From a virus (taxonomy: Duplodnaviria > Heunggongvirae > Uroviricota > Caudoviricetes), in the IMG/VR virus record IMGVR_UViG_2734482785_000014, positions 1 to 12,688 of that record: 12,688 nucleotides of DNA, one strand, 5' to 3'. A program made the position numbers and the translations under genes. Below the pieces are notes generated by a model that was given only the letters and a program-made list of their open reading frames with translations, made no database searches and was not told the DNA's origin. This document shows, in pieces, positions 1 to 639 of this stretch. Position 1 is the stretch's first letter. Each line of letters opens with the position of its first letter.

Positions 1-10
1 TTACCGACAA

Positions 11-38
11 CCCCGCACCACGCAATGCGGGGTTTTTT
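11..38 (+). terminator. Rho-independent terminator ending an upstream + strand unit
   Basis: Stem CCCCGCA (11-17) pairs with TGCGGGG (26-32) around an 8-nt loop, followed by TTTTTT (33-38). The reverse complement has no T-tract, so it is + strand only. Confidence 0.7.
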
Positions 39-54
39 GTATGTGAGGTAGAAA

Positions 55-639
55 GTGATGAATAAAAATATTGCCATGATGGGCAAGGGGAATGCACGTC
101 CAGTGAAAAAATTCTGCGATATTCGTGATCAGGTCGTTCTACGTTTTGATGGCGTGGATGTTCGTGTGGTGTATCTGAACGGCGATCCGTGGTTTGTTGC
201 AAAGGATGTTTGTGCGGCGCTTGAATTATCCAATTCACGCATGGCGTTGCAAGCTCTGGATGATGATGAAAGTAATACCGTAACTTTAACTTACGGTATT
301 CGCGGAAATCCAAATCATAGCGTCGTTTCTGAATCTGGCTTTTACAAGCTGATTGCCAGAAGTCGCAAAGCTGCTACTCCTGGCACGTTCGCCCATCGTT
401 TCAGTAACTGGGTATTCAGAAATGTGATACCGGGTATCAGAAAAACGGGGGCTTATGGTATCCCGTGGGGCGCATTACAGGATTTTTCCCGCCGCAAAGA
501 GCAATATCAGATAAGTGCCAGCGAGAAGGGGAGGGAGCTACAGGCATGTAAGCGCAAAAAGCGTGAGCTGGAGGAAGAAGAAAAAAGGCTGATACGTGAA
601 TACCAGCCTGAGTTTTACTTTGGTGAGCGTATTCAGTAA
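55..639 (+). CDS. Bro-N/AntA-type antirepressor-like protein (194 aa)
   Basis: The N-terminal half carries the Bro-N signature: LRFDGVDVRVVYLNGDPWFVAKDVCAALEL ... FSNWVFRNVIPGIRKTGAY. The C-terminus is a charged coiled-coil-like tail (KRKKRELEEEEKRL). GAGG at 45-48 serves as the ribosome-binding site; the start is GTG 55 or ATG 58. Confidence 0.8.
   Translation: MMNKNIAMMGKGNARPVKKFCDIRDQVVLRFDGVDVRVVYLNGDPWFVAKDVCAALELSNSRMALQALDDDESNTVTLTYGIRGNPNHSVVSESGFYKLIARSRKAATPGTFAHRFSNWVFRNVIPGIRKTGAYGIPWGALQDFSRRKEQYQISASEKGRELQACKRKKRELEEEEKRLIREYQPEFYFGERIQ

Follow-up and report, generated by a model that had tools for sequence, protein, structure and literature searches.

A conserved intrinsic terminator between alpA and bro in a helper-embedded phage satellite and the probable dependence of bro on read-through transcription

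The stretch of DNA analysed here (the window) comprises positions 1 to 12,688 of the IMG/VR record IMGVR_UViG_2734482785_000014 (Caudoviricetes). Judged by its gene content and by the context of its relatives, the window is a capsid-forming phage-inducible chromosomal island (PICI), a phage satellite, of the helper-embedded type. Its left end carries a strong intrinsic terminator, hereafter T2, immediately followed by bro, a gene encoding a Bro-N domain protein. The locus raises the question of how a gene placed directly behind a terminator is transcribed and what its product might do. The predicted architecture gives good support to a dependence of bro on read-through from upstream, and the polymerase responsible may be the antiterminated late polymerase of the helper prophage in which the satellite resides.

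T2 terminator and start of bro

The features needed to describe the beginning of the window are the following.

9..38, + strand: T2, intrinsic terminator (stem 9-17/26-34, perfect core 11-17/26-32, 8-nt loop, T6 at 33-38)
45..50, + strand: likely ribosome-binding site GAGGTA (GAGG at 45-48), 7-9 nt 5' of the ATG, read off the sequence
58..639, + strand: bro, 193 aa (Bro-N at residues 35-125 and a satellite-specific C-terminal helical region at about 137-182)
805..832, - strand: strong terminator with 12 pairs, ending the convergent DUF3950 unit and marking the downstream limit of the bro unit

In the terminator scan, the T2 stem spanned 9..34; it comprised 9 pairs, of which 6 are G-C, around an 8-nt loop. 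Its perfect 7-bp core, CCCCGCA(11-17)/TGCGGGG(26-32), is directly followed by TTTTTT (33-38), and the hairpin alone had a folding energy of -15.6 kcal/mol. When a perfect stem of 7 bp or more (5 or more G-C), a loop of 3-8 nt and a following T6 were all required, T2 was the sole match on both strands of the 12.7-kb window; 300 dinucleotide shuffles yielded a mean of 0.02 matches per window, with any match in 1.3% of the shuffles. A generic scan returned 26 weak terminator-like sites in the window (15.7±4.3 in shuffles). With its GC-rich stem-loop and U tract, T2 is a genuine intrinsic terminator by sequence, termination itself being predicted. The strong terminator that the initial annotation had placed just before the Bro-N gene was thus confirmed, with the start of the gene corrected from GTG 55 to ATG 58.

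This 3-nt correction is almost certainly right, as ATG 58 is the conserved start in all relatives: 22 distinct upstream variants keep ATGAAT and the preceding three bases vary. Among 13 distinct variants, GGT in the ribosome-binding site is invariant and the A/G-rich context is retained. The spacing from the last T of T2 (38) is 19 nt to ATG 58 and 16-17 nt to GTG 55.

Between the T2 hairpin and the ATG there is neither space nor signal for a promoter. A consensus promoter scan, which is a crude method, detected no sigma-70-like site on the + strand of the window ahead of position 1801. In a locus base-identical to window positions 1..1709, the + strand was likewise free of promoter-like sites from about 7 kb upstream through to bro. 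The earlier claim that the terminator leaves bro no room for a promoter of its own was thus borne out. The 5' untranslated region of bro must then include the T2 hairpin, so that any bro mRNA would bear it in its leader and would have been made by a polymerase that passed T2.

The minus-strand terminator at 805..832 was also found in Escherichia coli 042 and in the satellite EcCICFT073. A second minus-strand terminator-like hairpin (586-609, 10 pairs and a T run) lies in the 3' terminal part of bro; read along the minus strand, it comes after the strong terminator at 832-805, and it may halt antisense transcription from the DUF3950 unit.

Upstream unit of int and alpA genes

The first base of the window is the first base past the stop codon of an upstream AlpA-family gene, so that the window itself starts after alpA and int lies outside it. 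Four public loci (L275-L278) encode an identical Bro protein and are base-identical to window positions 1..1709. In these four loci, in E. coli 042 and in AH19B041, the genes follow one another on a single strand in the order int-alpA1-T1-alpA2-T2-bro, bro being the last gene of the co-oriented string. The int gene encodes a tyrosine integrase, and alpA1, which overlaps the int stop, encodes a 73-aa AlpA-family protein. It is followed by T1, a hairpin with T7 (-12.7 kcal/mol), and alpA2 (92 aa) begins 14 nt further on. Both alpA products match Pfam Phage_AlpA (winged-helix). In relatives, the upstream genes are always int and then alpA on one strand, and the overlap or direct abutment of the two leaves alpA without a promoter region of its own.

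The tandem AlpA paralogues (73 and 92 aa) with a strong terminator after each (locus L276, 9380-9943; locus L001, 13437-14000) are specific to this integrase type, the other three integrase types carrying a single alpA. A perfect TATAAT lies immediately 5' of the T1 hairpin.

Conservation of T2 among relatives

Conservation was inspected across 80 IMG/VR loci encoding a Bro homologue with 70-93% identity. A hairpin followed by T5-6 stood at a constant distance from the ATG in 74 of them, and these 74 loci carried four different int/alpA modules, corresponding to integrase types. The T2 stem was CCCCGC/GCGGGG in three modules and CCCCUC/GAGGGG in the fourth, where a compensatory change from G-C to U-A was accompanied by a different loop and a diverged spacer. 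Because the MAFFT alignment left the 5' arms of the T2 variants out of register, with differing loop lengths, this change was read from individual folds and not from pair counts. Folding energies of the variants ranged from -12.4 to -15.6 kcal/mol, apart from two eroded singletons near -9 (-9.2 and -9.5). Taken together, these data suggest that the T2 structure has been maintained in evolution; the support is modest, as the compensatory change is a single event.

The six remaining loci (L131-136), whose Bro is 70% identical, carry a P4-type integrase and have a hairpin-free gap of 20 nt from alpA to bro. Given this terminator-free gap, bro would there be part of the alpA transcription unit. 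The helper-embedded arrangement was not seen in these six loci, and a tRNA scan of their flanks, seeking chromosomal tRNA sites, found none. A T2-like terminator was also absent in 13 more distant Enterobacterales homologues.

Embedding in the late operon of a helper prophage

In the loci identical to window positions 1..1709, the + strand order was Q, lysis genes, HNH, TerS, truncated TerL, int, alpA, alpA and bro. The Q gene (Pfam Phage_antiter_Q) lies 7.3 kb upstream, and all genes from there through to bro are on the + strand. Terminator-like hairpins follow Q in the upstream region, and on the path from Q to bro no + strand terminator is stronger than T1 and T2. A Q gene and a late promoter-terminator region therefore lie upstream on the same strand, with an unbroken co-oriented path to T2, as in the lambda Q system. 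The 3' part of the helper terL comes after the satellite's own terL; in locus L001, the split helper terL (11036-12064 and 27295-28038) flanks a satellite with an intact terL of its own.

This arrangement was not restricted to a few genomes. Co-oriented embedding was found in six of the six complete E. coli genomes inspected, four of which were sampled across the identity range, and each of the approximately 66 IMG/VR loci with enough flank had a long co-oriented gpA-, TerL- or portal-like frame running into int. The T2-bearing modules target a Terminase_1-type terL, a lambda gpA-type terminase or a lambda gpB-type portal. Overall, in every context checked (about 76 judged), the element sat downstream of Q, inside a lambdoid prophage late gene and in the orientation of that gene. 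Since int, alpA and primase share the orientation of the prophage late gene into which they are inserted, these elements are helper-embedded PICIs. Window positions 1-700 found matches in 186 complete E. coli genomes, and in 183 the match extended over at least 80% of that length.

Transcription of bro through T2

The initial annotation had proposed that bro is expressed by read-through or antitermination, a claim now supported by the gene string, by the conservation of T2 with its compensatory change and by the embedding downstream of Q. Regarding the polymerase involved, a Q-modified helper polymerase that arrives in cis and passes T2 is given a probability of about 0.5, a reading drawn from the geometry of the locus. 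Under lambda-type Q, RNA polymerase no longer responds to intrinsic terminators anywhere in the late operon. Because Q overrides such terminators throughout, a Q-modified polymerase should read int, alpA, T1, alpA2, T2 and bro in turn. In the quiescent state and during establishment, ordinary RNA polymerase coming from int and alpA would be stopped at T2, and bro would be off or very low. In the late phase of the helper, the terminator-resistant polymerase would run through the interrupted terL into the satellite, ignore T1 and T2, transcribe int, alpA and bro, and probably carry on into the RNA-immunity and replication operon. Such a route fits the published data on helper-embedded PICIs, for which helper late transcription was proposed to enter the satellite and satellite excision was observed late, after composite replication (PMC10111431). 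In a broader and more tentative form of the proposal, T1 and T2 would act as 'Q gates', i.e. strong terminators placed behind the integration genes so that bro and the replication operon controlled by RNA immunity could be reached solely by the helper's Q-modified polymerase in cis.

Several points weigh against this reading. Passage of T2 by a Q-modified polymerase is deduced from the layout alone. Many helper prophages have pseudogene calls and look degraded, and Q may no longer fire in some of them. Excision separates the satellite from the helper promoter, after which T2 would block bro once more; Bro would then act in a short window only, or leak would matter. All T2 copies stem from one or two module lineages, so that the association of T2 with embedding does not represent many independent events. 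Finally, helper-embedded PICIs at the capsid-E site (L189-L233) mostly lack a canonical terminator after alpA. The idea that every helper-embedded PICI needs a terminator after alpA was consequently rejected, and the terminator is better seen as a trait of the T2-bro module than of embedding itself. Directly after alpA, these capsid-E-site elements carry several alternative AT-rich cargo genes, possibly defence or accessory genes, indicating a variable hotspot.

Among the three routes past T2 that were ranked, the Q-modified polymerase comes first, simple leak second and antitermination by AlpA last. Leak is possible but less probable: int and alpA would be transcribed from the satellite int promoter or through AlpA autoactivation, a few percent of polymerases would pass T2, and the imperfect terminator would thereby fix a low ratio of bro to int/alpA with no dedicated antitermination. 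The short T2 stem (7-9 bp) with its large 8-nt loop and the weaker natural variants (-9.2 and -9.5 kcal/mol) are in line with leak, as is the loss of the helper promoter from the upstream side after excision. However, T6 and a GC-rich stem at -12 to -15.6 kcal/mol, kept via a compensatory change, make a strong design, T1 and T2 in series would compound the block in type A elements, and the module was found in helper-embedded elements in all of the approximately 76 judgeable contexts. The remaining route, in which one of the upstream AlpA proteins would load onto RNA polymerase and carry it past T1 and T2, by analogy with Pseudomonas aeruginosa AlpA at tB, draws on the fact that every alpA directly precedes a terminator and then the next gene, on the TATAAT just 5' of T1, a promoter-then-terminator layout resembling PalpB-tB (PMC7969949), and on the requirement of alpA for induction of Gram-negative and capsid-forming PICIs. 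A literature search found no link between PICI AlpA and antitermination, so the idea stands as a candidate. It is nevertheless improbable. A name common to both proteins does not imply an equal fold or mechanism. P. aeruginosa AlpA combines an N-terminal ring in the RNA exit channel with a C-terminal helix-turn-helix (HTH), its functional residues extending up to 142 (PMC9371919), whereas the satellite AlpAs are small winged-helix proteins of 73 and 92 aa, in which a ring segment plus HTH with residues to at least 142 was not found. A PDB sequence search with the satellite AlpAs (E up to 10) returned, as the sole AlpA-named chain, a 73-aa 'AlpA family phage regulatory protein' (8c3t), and gave no chain from an RNA-polymerase complex and no match to P. 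aeruginosa AlpA. Processive antitermination by AlpA was dropped as a leading idea because the P. aeruginosa protein is much larger and Q-like and because the PDB search gave no match to it.

A further alternative, regarded as very improbable, dispenses with passage altogether: T2 would be the mere 3' end of the int-alpA unit and a recombination seam, bro being transcribed from an unrecognised promoter or constituting silent cargo. Sequence identity between int/alpA modules does start exactly at the T2 hairpin, which marks a mosaic junction, and the consensus promoter scan is crude. Against this, a start past the hairpin would leave less than 20 nt with no -10 or -35 candidates, and bro, whose product has invariant termini, is intact and under purifying selection in hundreds of genomes, among which are the 186 complete E. 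coli genomes cited above.

Bro protein and its annotation as an antirepressor

Bro matched Pfam PF02498 (Bro-N; E = 1.6e-17, 64.3 bits for a cut-off of 25.6; residues 35-125) and phrog_2593 (E = 1.6e-80). Among its 795 homologues, the best 120 were nearly all from E. coli, with a few from Salmonella, Shigella and Escherichia sp., sharing at least 88% identity. Both the N- and the C-terminus of the protein were invariant. No relative of Bro was found in the PDB by sequence. A structure prediction from a shallow 20-sequence alignment was unreliable (mean predicted local distance difference test score 44, predicted template modelling score 0.29), and the C-terminal helix at 137-182 is weakly suggested by this low-confidence model.

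Database names and the PHROG label for Bro read 'anti-repressor', and the initial annotation had suggested that the protein works like the epsilon protein of P4. Bro would in that case inactivate a repressor of the helper, of another prophage or of the satellite, as epsilon does with P2 C, and T2 would keep a dangerous protein silent. Such a function would make biological sense of a tight terminator before a gene whose leak would induce a prophage, and a tail-stealing satellite might gain from waking other prophages. It is nonetheless unlikely in view of the sequence comparisons. No BLASTP alignment of Bro with P4 epsilon was obtained at E up to 100, and no epsilon homologue was found in the window, the best tblastn fragment being 18 aa long (E = 0.13). 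In the Pfam search, Bro-N was the only domain of the protein, and ANT, KilAC, AntA and P22_AR were not found. Similarity to 50,697 phage records (tblastn), including phage 'antirepressors', was confined to residues ~24-134, i.e. to Bro-N, and just 2 records, each with 36% identity, covered 80% or more of the query. Bro thus shows neither a second domain nor full-length homology to a characterised antirepressor, and its label derives solely from the Bro-N domain.

Other lines of evidence converge with these comparisons. The satellite's own immunity is predicted to be RNA-based (isrK/C4), and the Pfam domain search found no gene for a CI-like repressor in the window. EcCICFT073, the best-studied Gram-negative PICI and a satellite shown experimentally to work (PMC6092414), functions with only a bro remnant: after alpA it has just a truncated bro (locus L274, 6714-7060) that keeps ...NLTYTPDGNQNMSIISESGFYKLI, beyond which it is joined to the minus-strand terminator region. 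Its alpA has its own 365-nt upstream region and is followed by a hairpin with no T run. Timing also argues against antirepression, as the helper would already be induced when Bro appears if bro is reached solely by helper late transcription. Lastly, the sole characterised satellite protein of the Bro network, the Vibrio PLE satellite's CapR, is a DNA-binding repressor (PMC10111431; PMC8096241). The proposed likeness to epsilon thus found no support. Bro most likely regulates the satellites' 'Bro zone' by sequence-specific DNA binding; it would be an accessory regulator and is not demonstrated to be an antirepressor.

Other features of the window

The window encodes its own HK97-type capsid, protease, portal, connector, HNH, TerS and TerL, the gene set expected of a capsid-forming PICI, and no tail genes were found in it. 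Pfam matches were obtained for Phage_capsid, HNH, Terminase_4, TerL_ATPase and TerL_nuclease; protease, portal and connector were assigned from the annotation of the co-linear E. coli 042 locus. The window ends (12688) at the stop of the satellite's own terL. Other genes encode the convergent DUF3950 protein, an Ash-family open reading frame (ORF) with RNAs, DUF4222, a DUF927 primase, a single-stranded DNA-binding protein (SSB) and PerC. The features between bro and the replication genes are listed below.

1251..1448, - strand: DUF3950 (YlcI/YnfO family) gene, convergent with bro (Pfam E = 1.6e-6; also among the gene calls in L275-278)
1518..1560, + strand: candidate promoter TTGACA-16-TTTAAT of the immunity/replication operon, read off the sequence and not scored by the promoter scan
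1654..2268, + strand: Ash-family ORF enclosing the immunity RNAs (Pfam Phage_ASH, E = 9.8e-16)
1824-1876: c4-a1b1 targets, within the Ash ORF
1837-1913: isrK (Rfam, 80 bits for a gathering score of 50), with its own terminator, a hairpin and T7 at 1891-1913
1935-2022: C4 antisense RNA (Rfam, 75.3 bits for a gathering score of 45)

The candidate promoter sits between the divergent DUF3950 gene and the Ash/immunity operon and is overlapped by two copies of the 10-bp palindrome TGTGCGCACA at 1524-1559, which are possibly an operator for a DNA-binding protein (Bro, AlpA or the DUF3950 protein). The Ash ORF showed weak homology to the ORF of the P4 cI region (31% identity, E = 1e-5), and the RNAs within it are, by their Rfam assignments, a P4/P1-type RNA immunity module ahead of the replication genes. 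A 437-aa ORF at 955..2268 was rejected as an artefact of an upstream GTG; it runs antisense through the DUF3950 gene (1251-1448, minus) and also spans the RNA genes. The window and L275-L278 diverge sharply from position 1710, exactly at the start of the immunity region, which suggests that the immunity module is exchanged as a cassette.

Implications for helper sensing

The element type, the Bro zone and cis activation by helper late transcription have already been published. The conserved T1 and T2 and their likely selective permeability to a Q-modified polymerase are not mentioned in the PICI papers compared. Helper sensing by Gram-negative PICIs is tied to a phage-encoded inducer of alpA (PMC6092414). 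The conserved strong terminator between alpA and bro provides a concrete element for the cis-activation proposal. If only a Q-modified polymerase passes T1 and T2, the satellite would read the antitermination state of its helper directly, and were the Q gates real, the inducing signal would be the state of the helper polymerase and not a trans-acting helper protein. The analysis also corrects an annotation habit, the widespread 'antirepressor' label for Bro. Apart from these points, T2-bro adds a small regulatory detail to a satellite family that was described before.

Comparison with known systems

The closest published counterparts are the helper-embedded PICIs of Tommasini, Mageeney & Williams 2023 (PMC10111431). 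Like the elements analysed here, they have an int-alpA integration zone, a Bro zone with C4/isrK, primase and SSB genes and late genes, together with co-oriented insertion in a prophage late gene and a doubled GTGTATTGCA motif in front of int. A terminase (Terminase_1) insertion site is given in the paper, and gpA and portal sites were also seen here. Terminators between alpA and bro are not described in that paper, paired alpA genes with T1/T2 are not mentioned, 'antitermin' is absent from the text and 'terminator' is confined to the discussion of P4, Q antitermination not being invoked. Capsid-forming PICIs, with EcCIEDL933 as prototype (Alqurainy et al., bioRxiv 10.1101/2022.09.08.507074), are comparable by their published description, with the same gene set as the window and alpA-dependent induction; unlike the elements studied here, they use six chromosomal attB sites, and bro and terminators are not discussed for them.

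The Q-dependent model finds its precedent in lambda Q and PR'-tR'. As in lambda, the region upstream of the satellite contains Q, a promoter-proximal terminator and a long late operon in the same orientation, and terminators within such an operon are transparent to Q-modified polymerase alone. The difference is that T1 and T2 belong to another genetic element inserted in the operon, their use as a sensor being inferred.

The left operon of P4 (PLL-vis-eta/kil-CI RNA-epsilon-orf151-alpha) resembles the satellite in having an AlpA homologue (Vis), then a Bro-network/Ash ORF with immunity RNA, then a primase. The P4 immunity RNA acts by premature termination, and upstream transcription overrides this termination-based block, as in the model proposed here. 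Unlike in the window, the next gene in P4 is translationally coupled to vis, translation prevents termination and there is no hairpin between the two (PMC10111431). P4 also has no Bro-N gene at this position, and its epsilon has no homologue in the window.

Vibrio PLE CapR, likewise a satellite-encoded member of the Bro network, is reported to bind DNA and to repress the promoter of the helper capsid gene (PMC8096241); it is likened to Bro by description. P1 immI (c4-icd-ant) and Gifsy-1 isrK-anrP share with the window the association of C4/isrK with an Icd/Ash-like ORF, which lies here directly downstream of the neighbourhood of bro. In P1 immI, the antirepressor is located downstream of c4 and is c4-controlled, whereas here bro lies upstream of the immunity RNAs in a separate unit, and a replication module follows the RNAs.

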